Assembly (NCBI GenBank): GCA_963792965.1
Contig: CAWBYW010000018.1
Span: 64,001 to 128,000, forward strand
DNA length: 64,000 nt
Direction: 5' to 3'
Source of the DNA: an uncultured delta proteobacterium
GTDB lineage: Bacteria > Desulfobacterota > Zymogenia > Zymogenales > Zymogenaceae
Each line of letters opens with the position of its first letter. Position 1 is the first letter of the stretch. The notes below the pieces were generated by a model. It did not search any database and was not told the origin of the DNA. It saw only the letters and a list, made by a program, of their open reading frames with translations. Positions 32,598-52,084 of this stretch are shown piece by piece. The position numbers and the translations under genes were made by a program.

Positions 32598-32610
32598 TAA
32601 CTAACTGATA
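32598..32610 (-). promoter_or_regulatory. IHF-binding consensus site
   Basis: TATCAG-TTAG-TTA on minus strand, ~30 bp upstream of the -24 element. Confidence 0.5.
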
Positions 32611-32638
32611 TTACTTAGTAATTTGGGAACATGCCTTA

Positions 32639-32656
32639 TTGGCCTGATACTTGCTT
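32639..32656 (+). promoter_or_regulatory. Sigma54 (-24/-12) promoter
   Basis: TTGGCCTGATACTTGCTT: GG-N10-GC spacing with TTGC. Confidence 0.75.
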
Positions 32657-32882
32657 ATTGTATTGATAGGTGGACGGGACGCAATAGAGACAGGCACGCA
32701 TCGGCTCGGCCACGGTATTAAGAGGAATCGACGCTGAGAAGATGGAGATAAGTTAGCTAAAAAAGATTGTAAATATACATAAAATGGTATAGATTTATAC
32801 GCCATTAGTGGAGCAATTGCAACGCCCCACACCTGGTGTATGATGAATATGTTTAAGACACTATTCGTTGAAAGGTACACCG

Positions 32883-33710
32883 ATGTATGAGAAATATTGG
32901 GGATTGGTCGAACCCCCCTTCGAAAATGTCCCCGATCCGTCATTCCTGTATGAGTCTCCTCAGCATAAAGAGGCGCTGTCCCGGATGCTCTACGGCATAT
33001 CCCGCAGAAAGGGGTGCATCATGCTCTCCGGAGAGGTCGGCAGCGGCAAAACAACGCTTGCCCGCACCCTGATCCAGAGCCTTCCGAAGGACAAGTACGA
33101 GGTGGCCATTATCGAGAATCCACGGCTCACCTCTTCCCTCTTCATCCATGAGATCATCTACCAATTCGTCGGTCAGTCGGAGAGCAAGAACAAGGTCGAT
33201 CTCCTCCACTCGCTCAACCGGGCCCTCTTCAAGAACCTCGCCGAGGAAAAAGACTCGATCATCATAATCGACGAGGCCCAGCTTATCCAGGATAAATCGA
33301 CATTCGAGGAATTGAGGCTCCTCCTCAACTTCCAGTTGAACAACCGCTTCCTCCTCACGCTGATCCTCATGGGGCAGCCGGAGCTGAGAGACGTCGTCAA
33401 CTCGACGCCTCAGTTCGAGCAGCGGGTCGCTATCAGATACCATCTGACGCACCTCACGTTTGAGGAAACCGTCAAATATATCGGTTTTCGACTGAAGCGG
33501 GCGGGTCTGTCAAAGAACGTCTTCACTACCGAGGCCATGGAGAAGATCTACGCCTATTCCGGGGGGATTCCCCGAAAGATCAATAATATATGCGACATGA
33601 GCCTTCTGATCGGGTGGAGCCAAAAAGCCACGTACGTTGACTCGAAGATCATCACCAACCTCATAGACGAGAGCAAAAATGGTAAGGATATCAGACATTA
33701 TCAAGGATGA
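32883..33710 (+). CDS. ExeA/GspA-family AAA ATPase (ATPase domain only)
   Basis: MYEKYWGLVEPPF..PDP.FLY, GEVGSGKTT, IIDEAQ, GQPEL, SGGIPRKIN. Confidence 0.92.
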   Translation: MYEKYWGLVEPPFENVPDPSFLYESPQHKEALSRMLYGISRRKGCIMLSGEVGSGKTTLARTLIQSLPKDKYEVAIIENPRLTSSLFIHEIIYQFVGQSESKNKVDLLHSLNRALFKNLAEEKDSIIIIDEAQLIQDKSTFEELRLLLNFQLNNRFLLTLILMGQPELRDVVNSTPQFEQRVAIRYHLTHLTFEETVKYIGFRLKRAGLSKNVFTTEAMEKIYAYSGGIPRKINNICDMSLLIGWSQKATYVDSKIITNLIDESKNGKDIRHYQG

Positions 33711-34740
33711 GGACCTGTTCGGGAAGTCGGACGTAAAGAATAAGAAGAGCGACAAGATCATCATCAGTGAAACCCTGACCGCCGACGATATCATCGGAGG
33801 TCGAATATCCGACGGACTGAGGTCCCCCACCACGATGGAGGAGGAAGAGGCGAAAATATTCCTGGGGAAGATCTACGCCGCCCTCGAGAAGGCGTATGCC
33901 GTCGTGAAAGAGGGGAAAATCTTCGGGGTCCAGCCATTTGAGACGCTCGCGGAAAAATTCGTCGATTCCATCGGAAAATACGACAATATCTTCATGTTGG
34001 CGGCTTATAAAGACTACGAAGAGACCGATCACGTCAACAACTGCCTCTGGACGGCTCTCATCGCAGTCAAGATAGGGAGACGCCTCGGGCTCGGGAAAAA
34101 GGAGCTCATCGAGCTTGCCCTCTGCGGCTTTTTCCACGATATCGGCCAGGAGCGCCTCAACAACGGTGTTCTCGTCAAGCATGGGGAGCTGACCGGCCCA
34201 GAGCGCGAGGAGGTTCGGAGGCATCCCGAATACGGCAGGGATATCCTGTTTTCCCTCGGGGAACCGCACCGCTATATCTCGGATACGGCTCTTCAGGAAC
34301 ACGAGCGGCTGGACGGATCCGGATATCCGTCGGGGCTGACCGGCGGGGAGATTTCTCTCTACGCCAAGATCATCGGTCTTGCCGACACCTACGAGGCGAT
34401 GACCCACTCGCGGCCTTACCATACGCGCAAGCTCCCGCTCTTCGTCATCAAGGAGATCGTCGAGAAGATGAGGGAGCAGTTCGATACGAAAGTGATCAAG
34501 GCCTTCCTCGAGGAGATCACGATGTTTCCGGTCGGGAGTTTCGTCCGGCTCAACAACCGGGAGGTGGGGAGGGTCATCGCCGCCATGAAGGGGGCGCACT
34601 TCCGCCACGTGGTGCAGATCCTCTTCGGGCCGGACGGTGAGCGGCTCATTAAACCCAAGGCGATTAACCTCATGGAGGCCCATCTCCTCTACATTACGGA
34701 GCCCGTTGACGAACGAAATCTAAGAAGAGACACGATATGA
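33679..34740 (+). CDS. HD-GYP domain protein
   Basis: FFHDIG, HPEYG, EHERLDGSGYPSGL, ADTYEAMT..RPY. Confidence 0.88.
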   Translation: MVRISDIIKDEDLFGKSDVKNKKSDKIIISETLTADDIIGGRISDGLRSPTTMEEEEAKIFLGKIYAALEKAYAVVKEGKIFGVQPFETLAEKFVDSIGKYDNIFMLAAYKDYEETDHVNNCLWTALIAVKIGRRLGLGKKELIELALCGFFHDIGQERLNNGVLVKHGELTGPEREEVRRHPEYGRDILFSLGEPHRYISDTALQEHERLDGSGYPSGLTGGEISLYAKIIGLADTYEAMTHSRPYHTRKLPLFVIKEIVEKMREQFDTKVIKAFLEEITMFPVGSFVRLNNREVGRVIAAMKGAHFRHVVQILFGPDGERLIKPKAINLMEAHLLYITEPVDERNLRRDTI

Positions 34741-35418
34741 AGACACGACATCTCATCATCTTATGCCCTTACGGCGCTCATGGCGGCGTCATGCGCCGGG
34801 ACCGGCGGCATCCACGCCAATACGGTTCCGTCCAAGCCCGAGGACGCCGTCCGTTACCAGCACCGGATCATACCCGGTGACAGCATCCACATTACCCTGT
34901 GGGAGGTGGATCAGCCCAAGGAGATCAACGCCCAGGTCAAGAACGACGGCACGATCGATATCATGTTCATAAAGGGTCTCAAGGTCATGGGGCTCACCGA
35001 AGAGGAGCTCAATACGTTCCTGACCAAGGAGCTCTCTTTCTACTACGTGAACCCACAGTTCACGGCGTCGCTCAATGCGTACGTTTATCTGCTGGGAGAA
35101 GTCAAAACCCCGGGCGCCTACACCTTTGAAAAGGGCCAGAGCCTTGTGGCGGTCCTGGCCGTCGCCGGCGGACCGACCAAAGACGCGAAGCTCAGAAACA
35201 CCCTCATCATCCGGGGTGACTATCACAACAATCCGACGGTCATCGTCGCCGACACGTCACGGCTGCTAAAGTCGGGGGACCTCTCCGAAAATGTCATCCT
35301 CCAGGCGGGCGACATAATCTATGTGCCGTCCAAGGTAATAGCGGACGTAAACTACTACATCACGCAGATCACCCCCCTCCTGGATTTATTCCTGCTGGGC
35401 GCGGTGTTCGGTATGTGA
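34737..35418 (+). CDS. wza: Polysaccharide export lipoprotein, Wza/SLBB (apparent frameshift in signal peptide at ~34767)
   Basis: ATGA-coupled MKTRHLIILC joins LTALMAASCAG lipobox after removing one C; IIPGD, DGTI, LGEVKTPG, LQAGDIIYVP. Confidence 0.82.
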
Positions 35419-35529
35419 ATGAGGAGTGTTCTCGCGTATCGGCTGTCTCGAACTCGGAAAGTAGTGCCTATCGGGCTCGAGAGCGGTATAGAGGCGAAAG
35501 ATTTATTCACTTAAAACGGTAACTCACCC

Positions 35530-37800
35530 ATGCCCCAATATGAGATTCAGCTGAAAGACCTCATCCGGATCCTCAAGAAACGGAGAAAGATCGTCCTTTT
35601 CTCGATGGTCACCCTCGCGGTCCTGAGCGTCATCTTTGCCAAGATCCAGTCCCCCACACAGTTGTACCAGTCCATTTCAAAGGTACGGTACGACCAGACG
35701 CGGTCCCTGGCGGGGATAACCACGCCGATCTACTACTTCTCTCCCTACGACAACATCAATTCTCAGACGAAGATCATCACAAGCTACCCTGTCCTGGAGA
35801 TGACCGCCAAGAAGCTCGGCTATTTGAACAAGAATCTGAGATCTCAGGATATCCTCAGTTCCAAGGAGCATATGTCCGTCGTCTCGGGCCTTGAAGGCCA
35901 GATCGGCACGGAGATCGAGGAAAACACGAATATCATCGACATCAAGGTCACCTCGGTCGATCCCAAGATGGCCGCCGATATCGCCAACGCGGTGGCCGAA
36001 AGCTACCGTGACTACAACCGCGACCAGATTAACAAGCGGACGATAGATACGAAGGACTTCATCGAAAAGCAGTTGAGCCTCGTCAGCCAGCGGCTTAAGG
36101 AAGCCGAGGAGAATCTGAAGAATTTCCAGCAGAATCGAAATATCGTGGTGCTCGACACCCAGACCAATAACGACCTTCAGTCGCTGGCGCTCCTCCAGAC
36201 CGACTACGATAAGCTGGACCGGGAAAACAGCAACCTGCTGGCATTCAAGAACAAGGTTACGTCAAAGAATGTGAGCGGCAAGGAGCTCTTCCCCATCCTT
36301 GAGATGGACGTCAACAGCAACCTCTACACCCTGAATGCCGAGCTGCAAAAGCTCCTCTTGGAGCGCGACGAGCTCATGACGGTATACACCATCAATCACC
36401 CCAAGGTCGCCGACCTGAATGATAAGATCAACAATATCCTCGCCCTGATCGGCTCGGATATCAACACGCGGGTCTCTTCCAACAGGGTACGCATGGGGAC
36501 TCTCAACCACGATATCGACAAGTATAAGGGACGGGCCGCCGAATATCCCGATGATAACCTTACGCTGGCCAAATATCAACGGGAGGTGAAGCTACAGAGT
36601 GACCTCTACGCCGAGCTTGCCTCGAAGTACCAGGAGATCCTCATCCAGGAGTCCGGAATGGTTGAGGAGGTGGGTATCGTGGCGCCCGCTCTCGTTTCTG
36701 AATTGCCCATCAATCCGCCGAAGATATTCTCCTCGTTCCTCATCGGCCTTCTCCTGGGCCTCTTCCTCGGCGTCTTCTTTGCAATCATTATGGAGAACCT
36801 CGACACCTCCATCGGCGCCATCGAAGACGTGGAGAGCTACCTCGGCATCCCCGTCCTCGGGGTGATCCCCTACATCGAGCCATACGTTGAGGAACAAAAG
36901 GGCGAAGAAAGGATCGAAAGGCCGACCGGAGATAAGCGCAAGGAGTCTCTCCTCGTCATCTCGATGAGCCCCACGTCGCTCGCGACGGAGGCCTACCGCT
37001 CTCTCAGGACGAATATTATCTTCCTGAACCAGGAAAAAGGGATCAAGACCTTCATGATCACCAGCTCCTCGCTCCAGGAGGGGAAGACCATCACGTGCAT
37101 TAACACCGCCATCACGCTGGCCCTCGGCGGATACAGGACCCTTCTGGTGGAAGCGGACCTGCGCCGTGCCACAATTGCAAAGACCCTCGGAATCGAGCGT
37201 TCGCCCGGCCTCTCGGAGGTGATCCTCGGGATTGACTCGGCAAAAGAGGTGACACGGGATATTAACGACATCATCCTCGGCGGGCTCGAAATGGACACCC
37301 TTATGAAGTCGCCCGAGCTTGCCAACCTCTTCGTCATCACCTCCGGCGCCTTCCCGACAAACCCCGCAGAGCTGCTGAGCTCAAAGCAGATGATGAAGTT
37401 CATCGAGGAGGCCAAGGCCGAGTACGACTTCATCATCTTTGATAGCACACCGGTGTTGCCTGTTACGGACGCCGTGTTACTGTCTCAGAAAGTCGATGGC
37501 GTGATTATCCTCTACGAGGTGGGGAAGATCGCCCGCGGGGTGCTCAAGAGGACCAAGTCCCACCTCGACAACGTGAAGGCCAACGTGCTGGGGGTCATAC
37601 TCAACAACGTAAGGCCGGAGTATGGGCCCGACTATTACAGCTACCATTACCAGTATTATTACGAGGAGGGCAAGCATCCCCGGAAGCTCGGCGAATGGGA
37701 AAAGATCAAGGAATATTTCTCGAAGGATAGCCTGAGGCGGTTTGCCTCAGACACCCGAGAGAAACTCTCGAAGACTTTTCAAAAAAAGGAAATGCGGTAG
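35530..37800 (+). CDS. wzc: Polysaccharide co-polymerase / BY tyrosine kinase
   Basis: Two TM segments flanking a coiled coil; EAYRSLRTN, Walker A SSLQEGKT, ADLRR, DSTPV; Tyr cluster YYSYHYQYYY. Confidence 0.93.
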   Translation: MPQYEIQLKDLIRILKKRRKIVLFSMVTLAVLSVIFAKIQSPTQLYQSISKVRYDQTRSLAGITTPIYYFSPYDNINSQTKIITSYPVLEMTAKKLGYLNKNLRSQDILSSKEHMSVVSGLEGQIGTEIEENTNIIDIKVTSVDPKMAADIANAVAESYRDYNRDQINKRTIDTKDFIEKQLSLVSQRLKEAEENLKNFQQNRNIVVLDTQTNNDLQSLALLQTDYDKLDRENSNLLAFKNKVTSKNVSGKELFPILEMDVNSNLYTLNAELQKLLLERDELMTVYTINHPKVADLNDKINNILALIGSDINTRVSSNRVRMGTLNHDIDKYKGRAAEYPDDNLTLAKYQREVKLQSDLYAELASKYQEILIQESGMVEEVGIVAPALVSELPINPPKIFSSFLIGLLLGLFLGVFFAIIMENLDTSIGAIEDVESYLGIPVLGVIPYIEPYVEEQKGEERIERPTGDKRKESLLVISMSPTSLATEAYRSLRTNIIFLNQEKGIKTFMITSSSLQEGKTITCINTAITLALGGYRTLLVEADLRRATIAKTLGIERSPGLSEVILGIDSAKEVTRDINDIILGGLEMDTLMKSPELANLFVITSGAFPTNPAELLSSKQMMKFIEEAKAEYDFIIFDSTPVLPVTDAVLLSQKVDGVIILYEVGKIARGVLKRTKSHLDNVKANVLGVILNNVRPEYGPDYYSYHYQYYYEEGKHPRKLGEWEKIKEYFSKDSLRRFASDTREKLSKTFQKKEMR

Positions 37801-37820
37801 CCCGCAGGAAGGCCGTCATC

Positions 37821-39224
37821 GTGGGAACAGCTCGACATACATCGGAAGGGAATCTGACCAATTTCTCCACCTCCATCGCCCTCGGCATCATGGTCATCAT
37901 GATCTCCGTCCTGGCCTTCTTGATTTCCGGCGGGATGCAGCTCAAGATGGTGGTCATGGTGGTCGGCATCATCGCCACCGCCATCTGTTTTTTCAACACC
38001 GAGATGGCCCTCTACCTCATCCTCTTTGCCATGCTCTTTTCGCCGGAGTTTTCCTTTGGCGGAGAACTGGCGGAGGGTAGGAAGCTCGTCCTTAGGGTCG
38101 AGGATATTATCATCGTCGTCACCTTCTTTTCGTGGGTGGTCAAGACCGTCCTCTACGAAGGTGTGGGTCTGATCGTCAAGACCCCCCTGAACCGGCCCAT
38201 TAAGCTCTACGTCTTCGTCTCCTTTCTCTCCACCTTCCTGGGGGCGCTTATCGGCAAGGTGAACCTCTCCTCCGGGCTCCTCTACGTCTTTAAGTATATG
38301 GAGTTTTTCCTGGTCTACTTTATGTTCGCCAACAACATTACGGACCGGGACCAGGTCAAGCGGTTTATCATTGCGGCCTTTATCGTGGCGATCTTCACGG
38401 CGCTCTACGCCGTCGCCCAGATCCCCTTCGGGGGCAGGGTCACCGCTCCCTTTGAGGGCGAAAGCGGCGAGCCCAACACGCTCGGAGGGTATCTCATCCT
38501 GATTATCTCGATAGCCGCCGGACTCTGGTTTGTCATGCGGGATCAGCGGCTGAAAATTGCGCTGGCCTCGCTCGTGGTCCTTATGACTGTTCCGTTCCTC
38601 TTTACCCTCTCGCGTAGCTCGTACGTCGCCGCCATCCCGATGTTTGCGGCCTTTTTCATCTTCACCAACAAGAAACTGCTGCTCTCCTTTGTCCTGCTCG
38701 CCTTTGTGCTGGCGGCGCCCATCCTTCTTCCCGAAAAGATCAAGGAGCGGGTCTCGGAAACCTTCGTGCCCGACCCCGGTTTTGCCCAGACCCAGACCAT
38801 CGGAAACGTCGGGTTTGACACCTCCACGTCGGAACGGATCTCATCGTTTAAGTATTCCATTGAGAAGTGGCAAAAGCGGCCCATCTTCGGATGGGGCGTT
38901 ACCGGCGTCGGCATCATCGACAGTACCTATTTCCGCCTCCTGGCCGAGGTAGGCCTCGTGGGACTGGCCGCCTTTCTATATCTGATCTCCGTCATCGGCC
39001 TGCACCTCTACCATATCTTCAAGAAGTCGCAGGATCCGCTCTTGAAAGGGCTTGCCCTCGGGATGCTCGCCGGGACCGCGGCGCTCCTCGGGCATAGCGT
39101 GGGCGCGGCATCCTTCATCATCGTCAGAATCATGGAGCCCTATTGGTTCTTCATGGCCTGTATCGTTGCCCTCTACCAGATCGAACAGAGTTATCCGCCC
39201 GCTCCACAAAAGGAACTCGCGTGA
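37821..39224 (+). CDS. O-antigen ligase / Wzy polymerase family protein
   Basis: Polytopic; EPNTLGGYL, TLSRSS, RPIFGWG, RLLAEVGLVG. Confidence 0.85.
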   Translation: MGTARHTSEGNLTNFSTSIALGIMVIMISVLAFLISGGMQLKMVVMVVGIIATAICFFNTEMALYLILFAMLFSPEFSFGGELAEGRKLVLRVEDIIIVVTFFSWVVKTVLYEGVGLIVKTPLNRPIKLYVFVSFLSTFLGALIGKVNLSSGLLYVFKYMEFFLVYFMFANNITDRDQVKRFIIAAFIVAIFTALYAVAQIPFGGRVTAPFEGESGEPNTLGGYLILIISIAAGLWFVMRDQRLKIALASLVVLMTVPFLFTLSRSSYVAAIPMFAAFFIFTNKKLLLSFVLLAFVLAAPILLPEKIKERVSETFVPDPGFAQTQTIGNVGFDTSTSERISSFKYSIEKWQKRPIFGWGVTGVGIIDSTYFRLLAEVGLVGLAAFLYLISVIGLHLYHIFKKSQDPLLKGLALGMLAGTAALLGHSVGAASFIIVRIMEPYWFFMACIVALYQIEQSYPPAPQKELA

Positions 39225-40399
39225 GATTTGGCTATTTTCTCAAGATGCTCCCCTCCCGTATGTCGACTTTCATTCACCGGGAGATCGCCTGGCTCCGGTC
39301 GCAGGGGCACGAGGTATACCTCTTCCCCGTCTGGGACATCGACCCAAACGACCTCCCCGAGACTATAACGGGGTCCCCCGACTATATCATCGCTCGTACT
39401 TCGCTCGTATCGTTGGGCTGGGTGCCTGCCCTCGCTCGCTTCTCCCTTACCTCTCCGCTCAGGGTCGCGCGGATAGTCGCCGGCTACCGCCGTCTCTACG
39501 GGATCGCGTTTGTCCTCAAATCGATCGAGGCCGCCCGACTGATTCAAAGAAAGAGGATCGAGCGTATCTGCGCCCACACCCTTTCACTGGCCGCTTCGCG
39601 GGCACGCATCTGTTGGCTCCTGACGGAGATTCCCTACAGCATTACCGTCCACGGCTCGGATCTCCTCCTCTTCCCCCCCCGGGACGGCCCGGAATTAATC
39701 CGGGATGCACACGTCGTCATCACCCCCACGGAATTTAACAAGAAGCGGCTTCAGGAGATAGCCGGCCCGTCCGCGAAAGAAAATATCAGGGTAATCCCCT
39801 ACCCGGTGGATACCGACTTCTTCCGGCCCGAAACAACGAAGCTCGCGCGTATGGGAGAGATGCGACTGATCACGGTGGGGAGGCTCCATCCGGTGAAGGG
39901 ACACCGGTATATCCTCCGGGCCGTCGATACGTTGCGGCGGGAGGGAGTCGCCCTTTCCCTGAAAATCGTGGGCGAGGGGGAGGAAAGGACCGGGCTCGAG
40001 GCCGAAGTGAAAAAGCTGGGCCTCGAGAGCTACGTAGTATTCACCGGCGCCCTCTTCGGCGCCGAGCTGCGGGACCAGTTGGCCGCGTCGGACATCTTTG
40101 TCCTGGCCAGTCACTCCGAGGGCCTCCCGGTATCGATGCTGGAGGCAATGGCGACGGGCCTCTGCGTAGTGGTTCCCGCCGTGACCGGGATCCCGGAAAT
40201 GGTGCGCGACGGACAAAACGGCCTCCTCTTTACCCCCCAGGACCCCGTCGATCTGGCCGAGAAGCTGCGCCATGCCGCTGGCGACGCGGGCCTCAGGCGT
40301 CGGCTCGGGAAAGAGGCGCGCACCTCCGTCGTCTCGCGGTGCAGCGGCGATGCGGTCTACCGAGAGATCCTGCGTGCCGTCGGGGGGGTCAAGGAATGA
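39221..40399 (+). CDS. GT4 glycosyltransferase
   Basis: TFIHREI, TVHGSD, VGRLHPVKG, EGLPVSMLEAMATG. Confidence 0.9.
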   Translation: MRFGYFLKMLPSRMSTFIHREIAWLRSQGHEVYLFPVWDIDPNDLPETITGSPDYIIARTSLVSLGWVPALARFSLTSPLRVARIVAGYRRLYGIAFVLKSIEAARLIQRKRIERICAHTLSLAASRARICWLLTEIPYSITVHGSDLLLFPPRDGPELIRDAHVVITPTEFNKKRLQEIAGPSAKENIRVIPYPVDTDFFRPETTKLARMGEMRLITVGRLHPVKGHRYILRAVDTLRREGVALSLKIVGEGEERTGLEAEVKKLGLESYVVFTGALFGAELRDQLAASDIFVLASHSEGLPVSMLEAMATGLCVVVPAVTGIPEMVRDGQNGLLFTPQDPVDLAEKLRHAAGDAGLRRRLGKEARTSVVSRCSGDAVYREILRAVGGVKE

Positions 40400-41550
40400 C
40401 GGTCGCGGATCTCACATTCGCCTCTAACGCGCGCACGATCACGAGCCATGCCGTTCGGGACACGTGGGCCTCGATGATGGGCCAGCCCCCCCACCCGCTC
40501 GATATTCCGAGCGGTCCGCTCCCCGCCGACCTTATCCCCTTTTCGGCGGCAAAGGGCTCCCTCGGGCCCGTGATGCAGGCACTTTCCCGCTGGGGGCTCG
40601 CGGGGCGCTTGGAAGAAAGGGAGCGAACGAGGGCCGAGGTCGCGCTCGTCCGCGCGGGGATGTCGGTGGCCGCGATGCGGTCGGAGCTCGCCCGGATACT
40701 CGGGGCGTGCGCCGCGGAGCAGGTCGATGTGGTTATCCTGAAGGGCCACGATCTCCTCGTCAGGTACTACGAGAGCGATACCATCCGCCCCGTCACCGAC
40801 GCCGACCTCCTCATCAGGCGACGTGACTACCCGAAGCTCGGTAGGATACTCACCGACGCCGGCTATCGCACCCCGGGGGGAGAGAGGACGAGCGTCTGGT
40901 CGCGGGGTGGTTTCATCATCGATGTTCATTTCGCCTTCGTCAACGACGTGAGGAACCCGATGAGCGCATTCCTGCCGCAGATCCCGGCCGGGGAGATCTT
41001 CGCTCGCGCCGAGAAAAGGGAGATCGAAGGCGCCGCATACCTCTCACCCGACCCCGGCCACAGCCTCATCATCACCGCGCTCCATGCGATGACCCACTCC
41101 TACCTGAAGGACTACTGGTTCTTGGACGCCGGGACGCTCCTGATCAGGAACGCCGAGCCGTCGTTTGTGGATCGGTGTCGGGCACTCGCGGAAGAACATC
41201 GGCTGACCGGTGTGCTGGGCCCCATGCTCTGGGCCCTCCGGGAGCACTTCGCCTTCAGGCCGGACTCGGGCAGGGGCAAGGAATATCGCGTCTCGCTCCC
41301 CGTCCGGCGTCTCATCGGTGCGGCGATGCGAAGCACCGACTACCTCTTCTTCGGCGATCTCCTGCTCGGATTGTCTGTTGACAGCTACAAAAAAAAGTTC
41401 TATTATTTTAAGGAGATGGCCTTCCCCCACCGGGACGTCGTCGCGCGGGAGAGGGGTGTCGGCATCACAGGGGCGGCCCCCTTATTTCTTTCCCGATCCC
41501 TGCACCTGGTGAGGTCAGGATTTCACATCCTCATCAAAGGACGGCGATAA
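40396..41550 (+). CDS. Nucleotidyltransferase family protein (NTP_transf_5-like)
   Basis: VVILKG..L..YY....RPVTDADLLI, IDVH, LHAMTH..WFLD. Confidence 0.8.
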   Translation: MTVADLTFASNARTITSHAVRDTWASMMGQPPHPLDIPSGPLPADLIPFSAAKGSLGPVMQALSRWGLAGRLEERERTRAEVALVRAGMSVAAMRSELARILGACAAEQVDVVILKGHDLLVRYYESDTIRPVTDADLLIRRRDYPKLGRILTDAGYRTPGGERTSVWSRGGFIIDVHFAFVNDVRNPMSAFLPQIPAGEIFARAEKREIEGAAYLSPDPGHSLIITALHAMTHSYLKDYWFLDAGTLLIRNAEPSFVDRCRALAEEHRLTGVLGPMLWALREHFAFRPDSGRGKEYRVSLPVRRLIGAAMRSTDYLFFGDLLLGLSVDSYKKKFYYFKEMAFPHRDVVARERGVGITGAAPLFLSRSLHLVRSGFHILIKGRR

Positions 41551-42167
41551 TGGCCGTATTCCTTCGCGCGGCGTCCCGATTTCACACGATCATACGGAAT
41601 TTCGTAAGGCTCTACCTCCTCTTTAACGAGAAAGAAGTGTGTTCCGTCCGGGATTCGATTGTCCGCTGCGAATGTGAAGGTGACGAGATGGTACTGTTTG
41701 GCCTCGATGACCGTAGGGCGCATCTCCTCAACCATACCGCCGCCCGAGTTCTCGGGCTTACCGACGGGAGGAGGTCCGTCGGAGATATCGCCGCGCGTAT
41801 CGCCTCCGATTTCGGGGAGAAAAAGGGGGTCGTCGGGCGCGACGTGAAAAGGATCTGTCGGGACCTTTATCTCAAAGGGGTGATCACTATGGCGCACGAA
41901 CGTTCGTATGTACCGAAGATAAAAAAAGAGACCGTCGTCCGCGAAGAGGACGACGGAGCATGTATCTTTGACCCGCTGACCGATGAGCTTTCGGCGATCA
42001 ACGAGACAGGTAGAATCGTCCTGAAACAGATGAACGGGAAAAACAGTATCGCACAGATCGCGAAGAAGGTCAGGGCTGTCTTCCCCGACCAGGAAGAGGA
42101 GAAGATATACCGGGACGTTGAGGCGTTCATAGATGAGCTGAAGAATCGGGGCTTTCTTACCGTATGA
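41550..42167 (+). CDS. Tandem PqqD/RRE peptide-binding protein (second domain ScmD-like)
   Basis: Two units: EGDEMVLF..LNHTAARVLGLTDGRRSVGDI..L.LKGVI and REEDDGACIFDP..INETGRIVLKQMNGKNSI..L.NRGFL. Confidence 0.88.
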   Translation: MAVFLRAASRFHTIIRNFVRLYLLFNEKEVCSVRDSIVRCECEGDEMVLFGLDDRRAHLLNHTAARVLGLTDGRRSVGDIAARIASDFGEKKGVVGRDVKRICRDLYLKGVITMAHERSYVPKIKKETVVREEDDGACIFDPLTDELSAINETGRIVLKQMNGKNSIAQIAKKVRAVFPDQEEEKIYRDVEAFIDELKNRGFLTV

Positions 42168-42232: not shown

Positions 42233-43528
42233 GTGGTAAACAGATCAGTCCTAAAGAAAGAAAAGGGAAACACTCCCATCCCCACAAGCATGCTGCGCGC
42301 ACCGCTGTCCCTCTTTATCTCGATCACCTCGCGCTGCAACCTCTCGTGCCGCCATTGCGCCGTCTATTCGGACGACCTTACGTATGACCCGGATCTCACC
42401 ACCTCACAATGGCTCTCCTTCATCGACCAGATCGTCCGTCTCAGGGTCTTCCGCGTCAAGATCAGCGGCGGAGAGCCGTTCGCGCGAAAGGACATCTTCG
42501 ATATCCTCGATCACCTTTTCACGCAGCCGATCCGTGTCTCGATTAATACCAACGCCATGCTTATCGATGAGGATGCCGCCCGGCATCTCTCGTCGTACGG
42601 GCCAAAGCTCTCCGACCTCATGGTGAGCATTGACGGGGGCTCCCCCGAAACCCACGACGCCCTTCGGGGGCGAGGGGCATTTCGGGAGATGCTGAAGGGG
42701 GCTGGGCATCTGGTCGAACACGTGAGAAAACTCACCGCCTATTGCACGGTGACCCGCCTCAATTTCAGGGAGCTCGGGGACGTGGCGCGTCTGGCCTCGG
42801 AAATCGGGATAAGTGGTCTAAAATTTAACGACCTTATCCCCCTGGGGCGTGGGCTTAAATACCGGGATGATCTTGATCTCACGCGGGAGGAGAAACGAGA
42901 AACCACTACACGCCTCAAGGCGCTGCAAAAGACGTATCCCTTCATATCGGGGACCCTCTTTGAGGTAGACGAGATATTCGAGAAGATCGGGTCGACAGCT
43001 CCCGAAAAGCTGGCGGAGTCGTCGGAAATGGAACACTGCCTTTCGGGATGCGGCGCGCTCAACAACGAATGCGCCATCAGGCCCGACGGATGGGCGACCC
43101 CCTGTGACCGCCTCCCGGAGCTCACGGCGGAGAATATCCTTGAGGTGCCGCTCGACGTGATCTGGAGGGAGTCGCAGACGTTTACGGAATTCCGCCGGCG
43201 TTTTACCACCCCTATCACAAGCCTCAGCACGTGCTCGGATTGTCAGTTTGCCCCGGTTTGCACAGGAGGATGCGCCGCGTCGGCCTTTGCGGCGTACGGC
43301 ACGACGCTTGCGCGCGACCCCTCGTGCTGTTACAGGCTCTACGAGGAGGAGACGGCTGATGCGCCGCATAAATCGACGCGAATATCCTCTCCGTCGCGCG
43401 TACCTCTATGTTTCCGGCGGGTGCAACCTCCGCTGCGCCCATTGCTGGATATCTCCGGCCTTCGTGGCCGAGGGCCGTGTACAACGAGATCAGCTGACGG
43501 CCGCCGACGTAAAGAAGGTCATCGATGA
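42233..43528 (+). CDS. Radical SAM/SPASM peptide maturase, ScmE-like (true stop probably ~43359)
   Basis: CNLSCRHC, SGGEPF, SIDG; SPASM CGA..ECAIRPDG..TPC...CSDC.FAPVCTGGC. Confidence 0.9.
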   Translation: MVNRSVLKKEKGNTPIPTSMLRAPLSLFISITSRCNLSCRHCAVYSDDLTYDPDLTTSQWLSFIDQIVRLRVFRVKISGGEPFARKDIFDILDHLFTQPIRVSINTNAMLIDEDAARHLSSYGPKLSDLMVSIDGGSPETHDALRGRGAFREMLKGAGHLVEHVRKLTAYCTVTRLNFRELGDVARLASEIGISGLKFNDLIPLGRGLKYRDDLDLTREEKRETTTRLKALQKTYPFISGTLFEVDEIFEKIGSTAPEKLAESSEMEHCLSGCGALNNECAIRPDGWATPCDRLPELTAENILEVPLDVIWRESQTFTEFRRRFTTPITSLSTCSDCQFAPVCTGGCAASAFAAYGTTLARDPSCCYRLYEEETADAPHKSTRISSPSRVPLCFRRVQPPLRPLLDISGLRGRGPCTTRSADGRRRKEGHR

Positions 43529-44447
43529 GGGCCGTCCGATAGGCCTTCTCAGCGTCAAGCTCACCGGGGGGGAACCGTTTATCAATGACGAGATATTCGA
43601 GATAATTGAGCTGATCGGCGGCCGGGAGATCTCGATGTTTATCGAAACCAACGGGACCCTGATCGACCGGGATACCGCGGCCTTCTTGAAAAGACAGGGG
43701 ATAAACTCCGTCAGCGTGAGCGTCGACAGCAATCGCTCCTCCTTTCATGATGCCTTCCGCGGGGTGGCGGGGGCGCTGGACGGTGCCGCCTCGGGCGTAG
43801 AGCACCTCGTATCCGAGGGTATATCGGTGCAGGTCATCATGAGCCTGGTCAGGGAAAACTCCCGTGACATCGAAGGTCTTATTGATTTGGCAAAGCGGCT
43901 CGGAGCGCATTCGGTGAAGATCAACCCGGTGACCCCGATCGGAAGGGGCGGAGTCCTGTCCGACCGAGGCGACACGCTGGGGGTCGAGGAACTCCTCGAA
44001 CTCTCACCGTGGGTGGAGGGGCAGCTCTCGCGTCAGTACGGGATCGAGACCTTCTTCACCGTTCCGTCCGTCTTTAAGCCGATCGGCCACCTGTTTGACG
44101 AAAGGAACGCCCAGTGCCATATCCTGACGATCATCGGCATCCTTGCAAACGGCGATGTTTCGATTTGCGGCATTGGGAGGGAAGTGCCCGCCCTCGTGAT
44201 GGGAAATATCCGTACGGATAACCTGGAACAGATCTGGCGGGAAAGCTCCATCCTCGGTGATCTCAGACAGATCGTGCCGAATAACTTGGAGGGAATCTGC
44301 GGTCGGTGCATCATGAAGGGGATATGCATGGGGTCGTGCCGGGCGGACGCCTATGTCCTTTCGGGGAGCCTTGCGGCGCCTCACTGGATCTGCCGGGAGG
44401 CGCTCGATAAAGGACTCTTCCCGAAAAATAGACTGTTAAGCCAATGA
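43359..44447 (+). CDS. Radical SAM/SPASM peptide maturase, ScmF-like
   Basis: YPLRRAYLYVSGGCNLRCAHCWI.P, SVKLTGGEP, ETNG; CHILTIIGILANGDVSICGIG...CGRC.MKGIC.GSCRA. Confidence 0.92.
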   Translation: MRRINRREYPLRRAYLYVSGGCNLRCAHCWISPAFVAEGRVQRDQLTAADVKKVIDEGRPIGLLSVKLTGGEPFINDEIFEIIELIGGREISMFIETNGTLIDRDTAAFLKRQGINSVSVSVDSNRSSFHDAFRGVAGALDGAASGVEHLVSEGISVQVIMSLVRENSRDIEGLIDLAKRLGAHSVKINPVTPIGRGGVLSDRGDTLGVEELLELSPWVEGQLSRQYGIETFFTVPSVFKPIGHLFDERNAQCHILTIIGILANGDVSICGIGREVPALVMGNIRTDNLEQIWRESSILGDLRQIVPNNLEGICGRCIMKGICMGSCRADAYVLSGSLAAPHWICREALDKGLFPKNRLLSQ

Positions 44448-45400
44448 TTGCGAGGATCGGAGGCATATCGATCAAGCTTTCCGTCCCTGGGGACCGGGCG
44501 TCGTCCGAAAGGATTCTGGAAGAGGTCAACGGCAGACTATCCGGCTTCACCGCTAAAAGGGGACGGCATAACCTCATGCTTACGATCAGGCCGGTGGACG
44601 ATCTCCCCTGGGAGGAGATACTTTGCAAAGAAGACCTCATACGGGCGCGCCGAATCGTGGATGTCCTGAGAAGGAGGTTCCCTCTTACGAGGATACCGTT
44701 TGAGAATATGCATACGAGCAATCCATCGCACATAAAGGGAAGAATTTCCTCCGACCTCCTCTCCCGCTTCTGCAGGGGAGGTGTTTCGGTCATCCCGCAG
44801 GGCGGTTTCCTCCTGGCCGTTGACCACCGAAGCGGATACGGAGAGGTCTTCGTTAAGCGGCGCGAAGAGGGAGGCCTCGTCCCCTCGTTCATGAGCGCCC
44901 TGCAGGGCGCCCTCGGTCTGTGCGCCTCGTACCATGACGCCCTCATGCTCCACGCGAGCTCCCTTGCGATTGACGGGAGGGGATTTGTCTTTATCGGCGC
45001 ATCGGGGGCCGGCAAAACTACAATAGCCTCGTCGGTCGCCCCGGAGGCGGTGCTCTCAGACGATGGGTCCTGGTGTTCGCGGATGGGCGGTAGATTTTAC
45101 CTGTATCGAACGCCCTTTTCCCAGATAGACACTGGGCCCCCTCTCGCAGACCGGACTCCTCTTGACCGGCTCCTCTTTCTCGGGAAGAGCGAGCACAACT
45201 ATATCGCCGGCCTCTCGCCGGGCCGGGCCATGACAATGCTGCTTCTCAATCACATCCACTTCTTCCGATATATGGACCGGGAGGGAGCATTTAAGGCCTT
45301 CGGCCTTGTGGAGGAGCTATGCCGGAAGAACCGGGCCTTCACCCTCTTTTTTAATCGGAGTTTTAATCCGATGTCATTTTTCAGGGGAATAATCGAATGA
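44444..45400 (+). CDS. HPr-kinase-related P-loop protein, ScmC-like
   Basis: MLHASSL, GASGAGKTT, LSDD, TPF. Confidence 0.8.
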   Translation: MIARIGGISIKLSVPGDRASSERILEEVNGRLSGFTAKRGRHNLMLTIRPVDDLPWEEILCKEDLIRARRIVDVLRRRFPLTRIPFENMHTSNPSHIKGRISSDLLSRFCRGGVSVIPQGGFLLAVDHRSGYGEVFVKRREEGGLVPSFMSALQGALGLCASYHDALMLHASSLAIDGRGFVFIGASGAGKTTIASSVAPEAVLSDDGSWCSRMGGRFYLYRTPFSQIDTGPPLADRTPLDRLLFLGKSEHNYIAGLSPGRAMTMLLLNHIHFFRYMDREGAFKAFGLVEELCRKNRAFTLFFNRSFNPMSFFRGIIE

Positions 45401-45618
45401 AAGAAAAAAAGACGTATGAGCCGCCGATGGTCATAGATCTTCAGGTCGACTATACCCAGGCGGTGGGACAGTCACGCTGCAACGCCGGGCCCACAGCCAC
45501 CGGGCAGTGCACCACCGGGCCGCAGGCGAACCGCACATGTGGCACGGGCACCCAATTTACGCCGTTCTGCGGAAACGGCCAAACCGCCAACGGCTGCAAC
45601 ACCGGTAAGACTCCGTAG
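45397..45618 (+). CDS. Putative RiPP precursor peptide (73 aa)
   Basis: ATGA-coupled to kinase gene; KKTYEPPMV..L leader motif; five CxxG at residues 28,38,48,58,67; Thr/Gly-rich core. Confidence 0.85.
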   Translation: MKEKKTYEPPMVIDLQVDYTQAVGQSRCNAGPTATGQCTTGPQANRTCGTGTQFTPFCGNGQTANGCNTGKTP

Positions 45619-45656: not shown

Positions 45657-46100
45657 GTGAGGCAGTTTAGACGAATCCGATTCCGTGGATACAGCATGTA
45701 CCCGGCGCTGCGCCCGGGCGACACGCTGATCCTTCGCCCAGTGTTGAGCGGCGAGTGTGCCAGGGGTGATATCGTCTGCGTCCCCGGCGAACGCAATTTC
45801 ACCACCCACCGCGTCGTCGAGATCAATCGGAGCTCGGCCGGTCCCATGCTCATCACCAAGGGAGACAACCTCCCCTACTTCGATTCGCCCATCGTCCTCC
45901 CCTCGGAAGGGATTCATCGGGTCGCCATGATCTGCCGCCCGGGACGGGGACCCACCAGACCCCGTTTCGGGAGGACACGTGCCCTCCTCTCCCGAAATAA
46001 CCTGACGGTAGGTATCATACAGGGGAGGATCGGGCGCCTCATAAGGGGCACGTATGGACGTGTTCGGAATTTACTTAATAGGAAACCCAACCGCACATGA
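45657..46100 (+). CDS. S24/S26 signal-peptidase-like serine peptidase lacking an N-terminal TM anchor
   Basis: AAAGGAG/AGGAG SD; GYSMYPALRPGD, RGDIV, THRVV, LITKGDN. Confidence 0.85.
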   Translation: MRQFRRIRFRGYSMYPALRPGDTLILRPVLSGECARGDIVCVPGERNFTTHRVVEINRSSAGPMLITKGDNLPYFDSPIVLPSEGIHRVAMICRPGRGPTRPRFGRTRALLSRNNLTVGIIQGRIGRLIRGTYGRVRNLLNRKPNRT

Positions 46101-47680
46101 ACCGGATCGATAAATCCCTCTTCCGCGTCTGCCAGGTGACCCTGGCAAACCTCCTGAAAACTACGGCCGCAAGGTTCAGGGATCGGGAGGCGATCTCTTG
46201 TTCTGTAACGGGCCGACGCTTCTCGTTTCGAGAGGTAAACGAGCGGATGAATCGGCTCGCCAATGCCCTCCTCTCGTTGGGGGTCAAGAAAGGAGATCAT
46301 TGCGCGTTTCTCTGCCGCAACCGGGCCGAGACGGGAGAGATCTACGGCGCCCTCATCAAAATCGGGGCGATCGCCGTACCGCTGCACTGGAGCCTTGAGA
46401 TTGAAGAGATCATCGACTACCTCACGTTTACCCAGGCCCGGCATTTCCTGTTTGAGGATTTCTATACCGAGGCCGCTATCGTGATCAAAAAGCGCCTCAG
46501 GCGCATCAAGACGTTCGTCTGCATCGGGAAACAGGAGACCGACTTTGCCCTCCCCTACGAGGAGCTGATCAGCGGATCGTCCCCCGTTCTTCCCTTCATC
46601 GACGTGAATGCCGACGACGTCCAGGGCATCGATACAACCTCCCGGACGACCGGTGTCCATAAGGTCTATCCCCTCACCCACGCAAACGGCCTGAGCGCCG
46701 TCATGTTCTTCACGTCGATCCACGAGTTGACGAAAGATGACGTCATCCTGACCCTCTTCCCCCTCTACGGGCGCGTGGGCCTTGCCTGGTATGGTGCGGG
46801 ATTTTTGACCGGGGCCCGCAACGTCCTGTTTCAACCGGACATGACCGATCCATCCGGCATTTTGCGGATCATACAGGACGAGCGCATCACCATAACCAAC
46901 TGGACCCCGATTGTCGCGTCTATCCTCCTCACGCTCCCGGATCTGGATCGATACGACCTCTCGTCCCTCAGAGCGATCTCTTTTTCGGCAAGCCGCTTTC
47001 CCGTCGACCTGCAAAAGGAGGTGAGGGATCGCATCTGCCCCGACATCTACGAATATTACGCCATGCAGGAGGCCGGCATCATTGCCCACATGGGGCCCGA
47101 GGACAAGCGGAAAAATCCCGCCTCCGTGGGAACCCTCTGCTTCGGGACCGACGTGCGCATCGTGGACGAGGCCGGGAAAGATGTGGCCACCGGCGAAATC
47201 GGCCAAATCATCTGCAGGGCCCTCTCCGCCGCACCAGGGTATTTCAGGAATGACGCGCAGACGCGATCGGCTTTCAGGGACGGCTGGTTTTACACCGACG
47301 ACTGGGGGCGGTTTGATGAAGACCAGTTCTTCTATTTCTTAGGCAGGAGGGAGGACATGATCGTGACGGGGGATACGACGGTCTTCGCGGCGGGTATCGA
47401 AGAGGTCCTTACCGCCCACGAGGGGGTCCTGGACGCCGCGGTCATCGGGCTGCCGGATGATACGCTCGGTGAGGCCGTGACGGCGGTGATAGTGAGAAAC
47501 CCGAAGGGAGACGTGACGAGAGAGGCGCTGACCGTCTGGTGTCGGGAGAGGCTTACCCCGCACCAGGTGCCCCGGCGGATCATCTTTTCCGCGATGCTCC
47601 CCCGCAACGCCGTCGGCAAGGTAACCAAGTATGTGCTGGTCGAGAGGTTCTCCCGTGAGGGCGCTCACACCGACGGATAG
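46097..47680 (+). CDS. AMP-binding acyl-CoA synthetase-like protein with degenerate motifs
   Basis: NRLANAL.SLGVKKGD, TTSRTTGVHK, YAMQE, DGWFYTDD.G, GRREDMI, LPRNAVGKV. Confidence 0.85.
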   Translation: MNRIDKSLFRVCQVTLANLLKTTAARFRDREAISCSVTGRRFSFREVNERMNRLANALLSLGVKKGDHCAFLCRNRAETGEIYGALIKIGAIAVPLHWSLEIEEIIDYLTFTQARHFLFEDFYTEAAIVIKKRLRRIKTFVCIGKQETDFALPYEELISGSSPVLPFIDVNADDVQGIDTTSRTTGVHKVYPLTHANGLSAVMFFTSIHELTKDDVILTLFPLYGRVGLAWYGAGFLTGARNVLFQPDMTDPSGILRIIQDERITITNWTPIVASILLTLPDLDRYDLSSLRAISFSASRFPVDLQKEVRDRICPDIYEYYAMQEAGIIAHMGPEDKRKNPASVGTLCFGTDVRIVDEAGKDVATGEIGQIICRALSAAPGYFRNDAQTRSAFRDGWFYTDDWGRFDEDQFFYFLGRREDMIVTGDTTVFAAGIEEVLTAHEGVLDAAVIGLPDDTLGEAVTAVIVRNPKGDVTREALTVWCRERLTPHQVPRRIIFSAMLPRNAVGKVTKYVLVERFSREGAHTDG

Positions 47681-48724: not shown

Positions 48725-49981
48725 TTGCCCGTGATACCGGTAAATGATCAGAAAGCCGTGAGGACCAACAATCAGCTGTCCATCCTCAACGCGTTGAAGG
48801 GTGCCGGCCCCATGTCGCGCAGGCGTCTCCAGGGCGCGACGGGCCTCAGTTGGGGGACGATAACCTATCTGGTGAACGAGCTGATCGATCTTCAGATCGT
48901 CCGGGAAGTTGGAATGCTTGCCACGGGCGTCGGCAGGCCGCCGGTCGATCTGGATCTGAACACGGAGGCCAACTTCGTCATCGGAATCTGGATGGGAGAC
49001 CGGCACGTGGATGCGTTGATGCTCGACATAAAGGGCCGCGCGGTGCGCGAGCTCTCTCTCCCCCTGGATCCATCGGCCCATTCAGAAGCCATCGTCCGGC
49101 GTCTCTTTGGAGTGGTCGATACCCTGATCGAGCAGGGCTCTGTTGGGTGCTCGTCGATCGCCGGGATCGGGTGCGCCGTGCCGGGCTCATATAACCCGGC
49201 GACGGGCGTCTGTGCGTATGCACCTAACCACCCGCACTGGCGCGATGTACCGCTCTTGAGCCTCTTCACGGAGCGATATCACAGGCCCGTCTTCATTGAC
49301 CACGACATGAATTGCTGCGTGCTGGGCGAGCATTTCTTCGGCGACACCGGGCGCTTTTCCAACTTCGTCTGTGTGAATATCGAGGGGGGCATTGGGGCGG
49401 GCATCATGATAAACGGCGAGGTCTACCGGGGCGCTGACAACTCCGCCGGCGAATTGGGTCACATCCTTGTGGCAGACAACGGCCCGCGCTGCAGTTGCGG
49501 GAGATACGGGTGCCTGGAGTCCGTCGCATCTGACCGGGCACTTCTGGCGGGGGCCCGCCTGACGGCGGCCGGCCGCAAGCGGGACGCTTTCTCCGCAAAC
49601 CATGCCGGCGACCGCGACATGGGCCTCGAAACAGTCATCGAGGCGGCTCGGCTCGGTGATAAGGAAGTCCTTTCCCTGTTTGAGGAGATGGGGCACTACC
49701 TCGGTATCGGTATCGGTATCCTGATAACGCTCTTTAACCCCGAAAAGGTTATCCTGAGCGGCGGTATCTTCAGGGCACGGGATTTTCTGCAGACATCAAT
49801 GAACGCGTCGCTGGGTAAGACGGCGTGGCCCTATGCCCGCGCGGATGTGGGCTTCACCGTTCTTAAGAACGGCATCGTGCTGGGCGCCGCGGGAATGGTG
49901 CTGCAGGAGATTTTCAAGAACGCCCTCCTCCTGCCAGGACAGGCCGTCCGGGGCATCGCCGCCCGTGGAGACGAGAGGTGA
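48725..49981 (+). CDS. ROK-family (XylR/NagC-like) transcriptional repressor
   Basis: N-terminal HTH, GRPP, PG, GIGAG, GELGH, CSCGRYGCLE. Confidence 0.92.
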   Translation: MPVIPVNDQKAVRTNNQLSILNALKGAGPMSRRRLQGATGLSWGTITYLVNELIDLQIVREVGMLATGVGRPPVDLDLNTEANFVIGIWMGDRHVDALMLDIKGRAVRELSLPLDPSAHSEAIVRRLFGVVDTLIEQGSVGCSSIAGIGCAVPGSYNPATGVCAYAPNHPHWRDVPLLSLFTERYHRPVFIDHDMNCCVLGEHFFGDTGRFSNFVCVNIEGGIGAGIMINGEVYRGADNSAGELGHILVADNGPRCSCGRYGCLESVASDRALLAGARLTAAGRKRDAFSANHAGDRDMGLETVIEAARLGDKEVLSLFEEMGHYLGIGIGILITLFNPEKVILSGGIFRARDFLQTSMNASLGKTAWPYARADVGFTVLKNGIVLGAAGMVLQEIFKNALLLPGQAVRGIAARGDER

Positions 49982-51090: not shown

Positions 51091-51130
51091 ACAGTCACAC
51101 CCCGTCCGGGAGAAGAATCGGAGGAACGCT

Positions 51131-51988: not shown

Positions 51989-52084
51989 GAGCGACGCCGC
52001 CACGCTTTGCGCGCAACGATCGGTGATGGTGCCTCGTGTGCATGAGGGCCGTCGTTCATTAACAATCTCTTTGGGACAACGCTC

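Follow-up and report, generated by a model that had tools for sequence, protein, structure and literature searches.

A small precursor gene within a same-strand gene cassette

We analyzed a 64,000-nucleotide stretch of DNA (here called the window) from an uncultured delta proteobacterium of the family Zymogenaceae, which corresponds to positions 64,001 to 128,000 of the forward strand of contig CAWBYW010000018.1 (assembly GCA_963792965.1). Our subject is a small open reading frame (ORF) in this window, which has the look of a precursor of a peptide that is made on the ribosome and modified after translation (RiPP), and the cassette of enzyme genes that surrounds it. It is highly probable that the ORF encodes an ScmA-like precursor, named after the small precursor of the predicted SynChlorMet (SCM) cassette, of a multienzyme peptide maturation pathway encoded around it. 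The neighboring enzymes may well cross-link, phosphorylate, and trim the peptide. The precursor gene and the other cassette genes are listed below by their position in the window; RRE stands for RiPP recognition element and SAM for S-adenosylmethionine.

45397..45618, + strand: precursor peptide gene, 73 amino acids (aa) plus stop; translation MKEKKTYEPPMVIDLQVDYTQAVGQSRCNAGPTATGQCTTGPQANRTCGTGTQFTPFCGNGQTANGCNTGKTP
45397-45468: leader, approximately aa 1 to 24
45469-45615: core, aa 25 to 73
40339..41550, + strand: NTP_transf_5 "uncharacterised nucleotidyltransferase" (PF14907, 100.6 bits)
41550..42167, + strand: fused tandem PqqD/RRE protein, 205 aa, two PqqD domains (Pfam PqqD, 81.6 bits over two stretches)
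42233..43528, + strand: radical-SAM/SPASM enzyme, ScmE-like (TIGR04250, 214.7 bits; cutoff, 400)
43248..44447, + strand: radical-SAM/SPASM enzyme, ScmF-like (TIGR04251, 358.3 bits; cutoff, 400)
44444..45400, + strand: HprK-like P-loop kinase (ScmC-like), 318 aa (HprK_rel_A, E value 8e-5)
45657..46100, + strand: archaeal/endoplasmic reticulum-type signal peptidase I homolog, 147 aa (TIGR02228, 46.0 bits, E value 5e-12)
46097..47680, + strand: AMP-forming acyl-CoA ligase, adjoining the peptidase gene

All of these genes lie on the same strand, with ends that overlap or almost abut. The ATG of the precursor overlaps the stop codon of the gene upstream (ATGA), the HprK-like gene, which is translationally coupled to it, and a GGGGA sequence is found 8 to 9 nucleotides (nt) ahead of the start.

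The precursor contains five CxxG units, with Cys at residues 28, 38, 48, 58, and 67 and Gly at the third residue after each, at spacings of 10, 10, 10, and 9 residues. The 49-residue core that follows G24 includes 11 Thr and 9 Gly residues. A third position of the repeat is also conserved: the residue at +6 from Cys is Ala or Pro in four of the five repeats and Phe in the third one. When all 45,735 open frames of 40 aa or more in the source genome (3.36 Mb in 42 contigs, 88.9% complete) were compared, the precursor ORF was the only one with a run of four or more CxxG motifs at spacings of 8 to 13 residues; the pattern is therefore not a product of chance.

A large precursor family with a common leader and decapeptide repeats

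A word-indexed search yielded four relatives of the precursor at 54 to 62% identity. All 10 genomes of the class to which the window belongs, a class with a single family and five genera, had homologs, and several of them had a second copy. Elsewhere in the phylum, 391 further genomes were sampled, of which 15 gave a match. A search profile built from 30 diverse members was then compared to 1.84 billion proteins, represented by clusters at the 50% identity level, and matched 1554 cluster representatives at an E value of ≤1e-3 and 71 at ≤1e-10. Most of the best 150 among these 1554 matches were 66 to 150 aa long and aligned from the leader onward. Pfam contained no family matching the precursor, the nearest ESM Atlas clusters were unnamed "hypothetical proteins," and comparison of the profile to the PDB returned nothing meaningful.

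We calculated repeat statistics from the 138 small proteins among relatives P0001 to P0155. Each peptide had between 4 and 12 Cys residues, of which 843 of a total of 895 lay within CxxG and 643 within CxxGxx[A/P]; consecutive Cys residues were 10 residues apart in 430 cases and 11 residues apart in 190. Counted from the Tyr, the leader logo reads K(-3), Y, E, P, P(+3), any residue, hydrophobic (+5), hydrophobic (+6), D(+7), and L(+8), with Q-A-x-G some 14 to 17 residues further on and the first Cys at about +21 from the Tyr. In the 30-sequence alignment, Tyr7, Pro10, and the first CxxG were invariant, and 90 of 132 relatives had A-x-[G/A] within the 12 residues ahead of the first Cys. The family is recognized by its YxxP leader and by the CxxGxx[A/P] decapeptide repeats that come after it. 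YxxP is also the motif bound by the recognition elements of lasso peptides and of the linear polyphosphorylated peptides (LPPs) of Bacillota (PMC13381572).

Comparison of the precursor with two orthologues over its first 41 codons gave ratios of nonsynonymous to synonymous substitution rates (dN/dS) of 0.11, 0.18, and 0.27 at dS values of 0.7 to 1.3. The ORF is a real gene under purifying selection. That it might instead be a chance ORF or a miscalled frame has next to no probability, given these ratios, the homologs in every genome of the class and the 1554 profile matches, and a repeat pattern found only once in the genome; the conservation by itself already refutes it. A search of sequencing runs listed no RNA run, and its only matches, three DNA runs from one study, contained 5% of the words queried.

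Several of these results bear on the first-pass annotation of the window, which was made from the sequence alone. The five CxxG motifs on a period of about 10 residues, the Cys positions, and the Thr and Gly counts that it gave were all reproduced in the translation. It described the Cys and the Gly at +3 correctly but overlooked the conserved Ala or Pro at +6. Its view of the ORF as a RiPP-type precursor divided into leader and core was borne out, with the split near AVG/QS, and the RRE-binding type of leader motif that it recognized is represented by the YxxP with its invariant Tyr7 and Pro10. The homology search that it proposed as a check showed the peptide to be conserved.

Other candidate assignments of the precursor were rejected. 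A Sec signal peptide in the leader does not agree with leaders whose longest hydrophobic run is 3 residues (median), and the models for the ACGX-repeat and GeoRSP systems scored far under their cutoffs.

The search for relatives also returned proteins of other architectures and genes in other settings. The top profile match, P0006 (1,062 aa), is made of dozens of tandem decapeptide repeats that each contain a single Cys with Gly at the third position after it, and it has no leader. It is one of the long proteins (>700 aa) among the best 150 that match the repeat part only; these are a different thing, and leaderless repeat proteins of this kind are false positives of core-only searches. P0040 (266 aa) has a YxxP leader and approximately ten CxxG repeats fused to a C-terminal FlgD_ig domain (41.9 bits), together with a subthreshold match to Por_Secre_tail (24.3 bits; cutoff, 27), and this hints at a surface or secreted destination in its organism. 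Three genomes of genus g3 (G002, G003, and G005; loci L053, L054, and L059) have in addition an orphan precursor gene that is remote from every cassette and that at L059 (9920-10117, + strand) lies between GNAT-like and Na/Ca-exchanger genes with a TPP enzyme nearby. At L132, which is labeled as a Bacteroidetes metagenome-assembled genome, the ScmE-like/HprK-like genes are separated from the ScmF-like gene by five precursor-like genes in tandem.

Enzymes of the cassette

Both radical-SAM enzymes have the sequence features of SPASM maturases, namely, CX3CX2C and the Cys residues of auxiliary clusters. The ScmE-like enzyme has CX3CX2C at C35/39/42 and a full set of SPASM Cys residues, and the ScmF-like enzyme has CX3CX2C at C59/63/66 plus seven SPASM Cys residues. 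The nearest solved relatives of both are the peptide modifiers SkfB, PqqE, SuiB, CteB, and anSME, all of them distant. The halves of the double PqqD protein match the lasso RREs TbiB1 and TfuB1, as well as PqqD, in the PDB (E values of approximately 1e-3), and in other lineages the two PqqD domains are encoded by two adjacent genes. For the double PqqD protein with the precursor, predicted complexes scored 0.12 and 0.08 against a mark of 0.32, which speaks neither for nor against binding.

In the HprK-like protein, H170, G190-K191, and D206-D207 are invariant across 13 relatives; its AlphaFold2 model (pLDDT, 87) has PEPCK and HprK/P as its best fold matches. The signal peptidase homolog falls below the TIGR02228 cutoff (46.0 bits versus 51.85), and its nearest solved chain is SEC11 (E value, 0.07). 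Residue spacing points to Ser13/His50/Asp75 as its candidate catalytic triad, and because merely 12 residues precede Ser13, the protein has no membrane anchor. In each of the five class loci that extend far enough (L051, L052, L056, L057, and L058), the acyl-CoA ligase gene lies beside the peptidase gene; elsewhere it is rare, with weak matches at 2 of the 80 distant loci described below. Since it is kept in all five class loci, even those that have no exopolysaccharide (EPS) genes, we treat the ligase as a class-specific accessory of the cassette, which suggests a class-specific extra step such as acylation. The gene is duplicated in L056.

As listed, the two radical-SAM ORFs overlap by 281 nt, with overlapping parts that are Arg rich and of low complexity, and a similar overlap is seen in locus L051. 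The ORFs may truly share this long stretch, or the overlap may result from a misplaced start or a frameshift in the assembly. The TIGR04251 match in the ScmF-like ORF begins at residue 46 (approximately nt 43383), and the true start of that gene is probably near 43359 to 43383. Downstream of the cassette, at 48725-53563, we found a convergent gene for an MBL-fold hydrolase and then a sugar catabolism set (ROK regulator, ketohexokinase, class II aldolase, and fucose isomerase-like protein).

A diverged relative of the SynChlorMet cassette

The SCM cassette is a bioinformatic prediction, defined by the NCBIfam models TIGR04248 to TIGR04252 (ScmD, ScmC, ScmE, ScmF, and ScmA), and reportedly goes back to Haft and Basu in 2011. 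It has in common with the cassette in the window a PqqD-type chaperone, two SPASM radical-SAM paralogs, an HprK-like ScmC, and a small precursor, and this gene content, co-located, is present in the window. A true SCM locus from a Chlorobium record (L084), whose proteins score above the curated cutoffs (ScmF, 590.9; ScmE, 602.5; ScmC, 309; and ScmD, 130 bits), also has a signal peptidase homolog and an NTP_transf_5 protein, as in the window. The cassette in the window differs from SCM in its duplicated and fused PqqD, in the acyl-CoA ligase that goes with it in this class, and in its setting, an EPS operon.

Scores against all five models fell under the cutoffs. For the window proteins, the ScmF model gave 358.3 bits and the ScmE model gave 214.7 bits (cutoff for both, 400), while the ScmD model gave 48.7 bits (cutoff, 100) and matched the second PqqD domain only. 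The ScmC model (cutoff, 125) had no match to the window protein or to anything else in the genome. The precursor scored 16.5 bits with the ScmA model (cutoff, 35), which is not significant genome-wide; in its own genome it was second of five weak matches, and this score is not usable as evidence. Across the family, 7 of 30 precursor relatives matched the ScmA model at an E value of ≤0.01, and none of 401 genomes of the phylum reached its cutoff. The kinship with ScmC emerges only through profiles: 10 of 13 HprK-like relatives matched the ScmC model (best E value, 1.4e-9), and a profile of the 13 relatives matched the true ScmC of L084 at 48 bits. Because all five cutoffs were missed, we regard the locus as a diverged relative of SCM and not as a member of its equivalog families.

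To describe the cassette across lineages, we used an ScmF-like alignment against species-representative genomes, which gave at least 546 confirmed ScmF-like loci. The best 80 of these were examined by comparing all of their open frames to our own profiles. The labels of the 80 loci cover Deltaproteobacteria/Thermodesulfobacteriota, Chlorobium, Chloroflexi, Acidobacteriota, Nitrospirae, Omnitrophota, Verrucomicrobia, and other bacterial phyla, and six are methanogen records. The components were found as follows, with all counts being lower bounds, as many contigs are short.

ScmE-like enzyme: 72 of 80 loci; 34 of 39 loci of at least 15 kb
PqqD: 66 of 80 loci; 36 of 39 loci of at least 15 kb
HprK-like kinase: 59 of 80 loci; 31 of 39 loci of at least 15 kb
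Precursor: 55 of 80 loci; 32 of 39 loci of at least 15 kb
S26 peptidase: 47 of 80 loci; 26 of 39 loci of at least 15 kb
NTP_transf_5: 36 of 80 loci; 22 of 39 loci of at least 15 kb

These counts mark the peptidase, kinase, and transferase as recurrent parts of the system and not accidents of the locus in the window. Several loci hold multiple different precursors. Within the class, five loci span the whole stretch from NTP_transf_5 to the ligase, and all of them preserve the gene order.

Likeness to LPPs and to other modified peptides

The second set of relatives is formed by the LPPs, described as restricted to Bacillota, whose clusters combine an archaeal-type signal peptidase, an MsbA-like pump, and YxxP leaders and lie in capsular polysaccharide loci (PMC13381572, Nat Commun 2026). 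In that system, the signal peptidase I-like LppS (Ser/His/Asp) cleaves the leader, which contains YxxP, only with the RRE LppB, and LppK puts several phosphates on Ser3 of the core (PMC13381572). The cassette in the window is similar in its discrete RRE, HprK-like kinase, and YxxP leader, as well as in its embedding in a polysaccharide locus and in having a Ser soon after the predicted cleavage site; Ser26 of the precursor is 19 residues past the Tyr, compared to 18 in the LPP consensus (PMC13381572). Its NTP_transf_5 protein is the presumed counterpart of the uncharacterized nucleoside triphosphate (NTP) transferase of LPP clusters, and its archaeal-type signal peptidase I homolog, which scores under the TIGR02228 cutoff, is a candidate counterpart of LppS. 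Unlike LPP clusters, the cassette adds two SPASM enzymes and a Cys-repeat core, and the term "radical SAM" has no occurrence in the main text of the LPP paper (PMC13381572). LPPs are described as linear products with an MsbA-like exporter (PMC13381572), whereas no exporter was seen in the ORFs that we scanned in the window; the two radical-SAM enzymes argue for a nonlinear product here. The ranges differ as well, with the window-type cassette occurring in many phyla and in methanogens and LPPs being described from Bacillota (PMC13381572).

Kinase and transferase pairs are also found in lasso peptide clusters. For pseudomycoidin, the HprK-family kinase PsmK and the NTP transferase PsmN are reported to place a phospho-hexose on the lasso peptide, and PsmK D158A/D159A is inactive (PMC6993621). 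Paeninodin and pseudomycoidin clusters are similar to the cassette in having an HprK-family kinase with an essential DD pair and an NTP transferase for a hexose on the phosphate, but the cassette has no lasso cyclase or B2 protease, and the phosphorylation site of those lasso peptides is given as the C-terminal Ser (PMC6993621).

For the repeat core, the closest analogies are to small-ring thioether peptides. Freyrasin has six CX3D repeats, and it resembles the precursor in having a repeat motif with one Cys each and iterative SPASM processing. The acceptor in freyrasin is an Asp at +4, however, and the window enzymes score 62 to 69 bits with the PapB model (cutoff, 340). PapB is described as a beta-thioether enzyme, streptosactin as having two unnested 4-residue sactionine rings, and NxxcB as making an i,i+3 beta-thioether (PMC9389541). 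Type 2 sactipeptides (streptosactin/GggB and QmpB) and NxxC peptides therefore offer the geometry proposed here for CxxG, a small ring from Cys to the third residue. They differ from our family in having two rings, against five to twelve Cys units, and one enzyme (PMC9389541), and they are not known to have a kinase, transferase, or signal peptidase module. Their enzymes are only distantly related to the SPASM enzymes of the window, and the curated sactipeptide and ranthipeptide models (AlbA, StsB, SkfB, and PapB) were all far under their cutoffs (e.g., StsB, 104 versus 625, and PapB, 69 versus 340). Literature searches on SynChlorMet, the Scm names, and CxxG precursors returned no paper on the chemistry of the family.

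Exopolysaccharide genes upstream of the cassette

The cassette continues a string of genes that begins well upstream.

32868..40399, + strand: EPS genes, in the same gene string as the cassette
39143-40399, + strand: GT4 glycosyltransferase

The string contains an XrtA/PEP-CTERM-type ATPase, an HD protein, an export protein, a Wzz/tyrosine kinase, a Wzy_C ligase-like protein, and the GT4 glycosyltransferase. The ATPase is TIGR03015-like (246 bits versus a cutoff of 324.5). The wider region 25293-39224 is an XrtA/PEP-CTERM-style EPS locus and also includes a flippase, a GNAT protein, and a methyltransferase. The genome, at 88.9% completeness, yielded no exosortase (PF09721), and an exosortase/PEP-CTERM substrate was rejected on this ground as an identity for the peptide.

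Homologs of five proteins of the EPS locus occurred within the fetched flanks (about 8 kb) of the cassette at 14 of the 80 distant loci. As a baseline, 3.3% of the source genome lies within 8.5 kb of such a match, a figure that is drawn from a single genome with the locus itself counted in; the 80 loci are not independent of each other. At L090 and L103, the immediate neighbor of the cassette is a Wzy_C homolog with 37 to 40% identity. The 20-kb stretches fetched from genera g4 and g5, which belong to the class of the window, contained no EPS homolog.

A proposed maturation pathway and its alternatives

Taken as a whole, the explanation that we prefer is a stapled, phosphorylated repeat peptide that is made together with exopolysaccharide, and we would put its truth in even balance. 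In this pathway, the double PqqD/RRE protein would bind the Lys-rich leader through its YxxP-hydrophobic-hydrophobic-D-L motif, as suggested by homology to the lasso and LPP systems. The RRE would then offer the core to the two SPASM enzymes, which would modify each CxxGxx[A/P] unit. Most likely, every unit would acquire a single small thioether ring that joins its Cys to Gly at +3 or to the residue at +6, unnested as in type 2 sactipeptides, with the second SPASM enzyme adding a different modification. By analogy, such Cys thioethers are a tentative assignment, which we place slightly on the doubtful side of even. The HprK-like kinase would phosphorylate a Ser or Thr, for which Ser26 is the best candidate, matching Ser3 of LPP cores, and the NTP_transf_5 protein would then elaborate the phosphate; going by the LPP and lasso counterparts, this kinase and transferase step may equally well be right or wrong. 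Finally, the anchorless signal peptidase homolog would cut off the leader near AVG/QS with the help of the RRE, a step that the parallel with LppS makes moderately probable.

The first-pass annotation had arrived at part of this picture. The SPASM radical-SAM enzymes that it named as partners co-occur with such precursors far beyond the source genome. It identified the RRE and the SPASM enzymes but missed the HprK-like kinase, the NTP_transf_5 protein, and the signal peptidase-like protease; similarly, it placed the locus correctly among RiPP systems and overlooked the kinship to SCM and LPPs and the exopolysaccharide context.

A number of observations weigh against the pathway as proposed. 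All five SCM equivalog models are below their cutoffs for the window proteins. For both radical-SAM enzymes, the models of known thioether synthases stay far under their cutoffs and rank beneath those of MftC, AhbD, and PqqE, so the reaction may be of another type. The two enzymes are deeply diverged paralogs that face one Cys per repeat, so at least one of them must do something other than form a simple Cys thioether. The conservation of Gly at +3 (94%) could be conformational rather than the mark of an acceptor. Of 130 relatives, only 33% have a Ser or Thr 19 residues past the Tyr, the LPP-like distance, and the target of the kinase is uncertain for that reason. Lastly, apart from a MOP flippase, there was no MsbA-like or other exporter among the 24 ORFs scanned at 25.3 to 53.6 kb.

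The most serious alternative accepts the precursor as real and does away with the Cys thioethers: the enzymes would carry out epimerization, form C-C or C-O links, or oxidize or convert the Cys residues, or the thiols would stay free as ligands of metals or Fe-S clusters in a metal-binding repeat peptide. After the Scm models, the next-best NCBIfam models are those of mycofactocin maturase, heme b synthase, NirJ, PqqE, and WgkB, and these proteins do not make thioethers; each repeat offers a single Cys to two enzymes, and the core otherwise consists of small polar residues. Against this, a strict Cys with a fixed spacing to its partner is the pattern of known repeat thioether peptides, such as NxxC peptides and streptosactin, and SPASM enzymes with two auxiliary clusters and an RRE in trans are described as the usual thioether machinery (PMC9389541). 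We consider this alternative possible, if rather doubtful. The same MftC and PqqE models, together with the discrete PqqD partner, might suggest the precursor of a small redox cofactor like PQQ or mycofactocin, from which a few residues are excised after radical-SAM cross-linking. A single fixed cofactor does not fit, however, because the number of repeats varies from peptide to peptide (4 to 12 Cys) and the core sequences drift freely among relatives; several loci moreover encode multiple different precursors, and we judge this reading very improbable.

A further possibility concerns the fate of the peptide and is compatible with cross-linking: it may feed into the exopolysaccharide pathway as a building block or a carrier instead of acting as a free bioactive peptide. 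The phosphate placed by the kinase near the new N terminus would then serve as a handle for NTP_transf_5, the glycosyltransferases, and the Wzy_C ligase-like protein, on which they would build or attach a sugar or polymer. This would agree with the position of the cassette inside a tight same-strand EPS gene string and with the EPS homologs near distant cassettes, at 14 of 80 loci compared to the 3.3% baseline, including the abutting Wzy_C homologs of L090 and L103. The LPP and paeninodin clusters of Bacilli are likewise described from capsular polysaccharide loci (PMC13381572), and a PsmN-dependent hexose is reported to be added to a phosphopeptide (PMC6993621). On the other hand, 66 of the 80 distant loci had no EPS homolog and neither did the 20-kb stretches of genera g4 and g5, the baseline rests on a single genome and the loci are not independent, and glycosylation would be by analogy. 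We consider the carrier role unlikely. A stapled and phosphorylated peptide that enters the exopolysaccharide pathway, not as an antibiotic but as part of a ribosomal peptide-polysaccharide conjugate or as a matrix peptide, is to us an equally remote outcome.

Implications for the family

The system is a variant that joins the catalogued SCM cassette, already known to databases, with LPP-type logic. It thereby connects two lines that had been unlinked, the predicted radical-SAM cassette of SCM and the kinase, signal peptidase, and transferase logic of the LPPs. The family is large and occurs widely among anaerobic microbes, with 1554 representatives and at least 546 ScmF-like loci in many bacterial phyla and in methanogens, and the 73-aa substrate, with five repeats of the same logic, is a handy test bed for iterative radical-SAM catalysis. 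The recurrent link to polysaccharide genes suggests a role in the cell envelope or in biofilms rather than in antibiosis. Should the improbable conjugate prove to be true, a peptide-polysaccharide conjugate would be common to anaerobic bacteria and methanogens, and the SCM cassette, the LPP family, and capsule loci would be brought together in one function.

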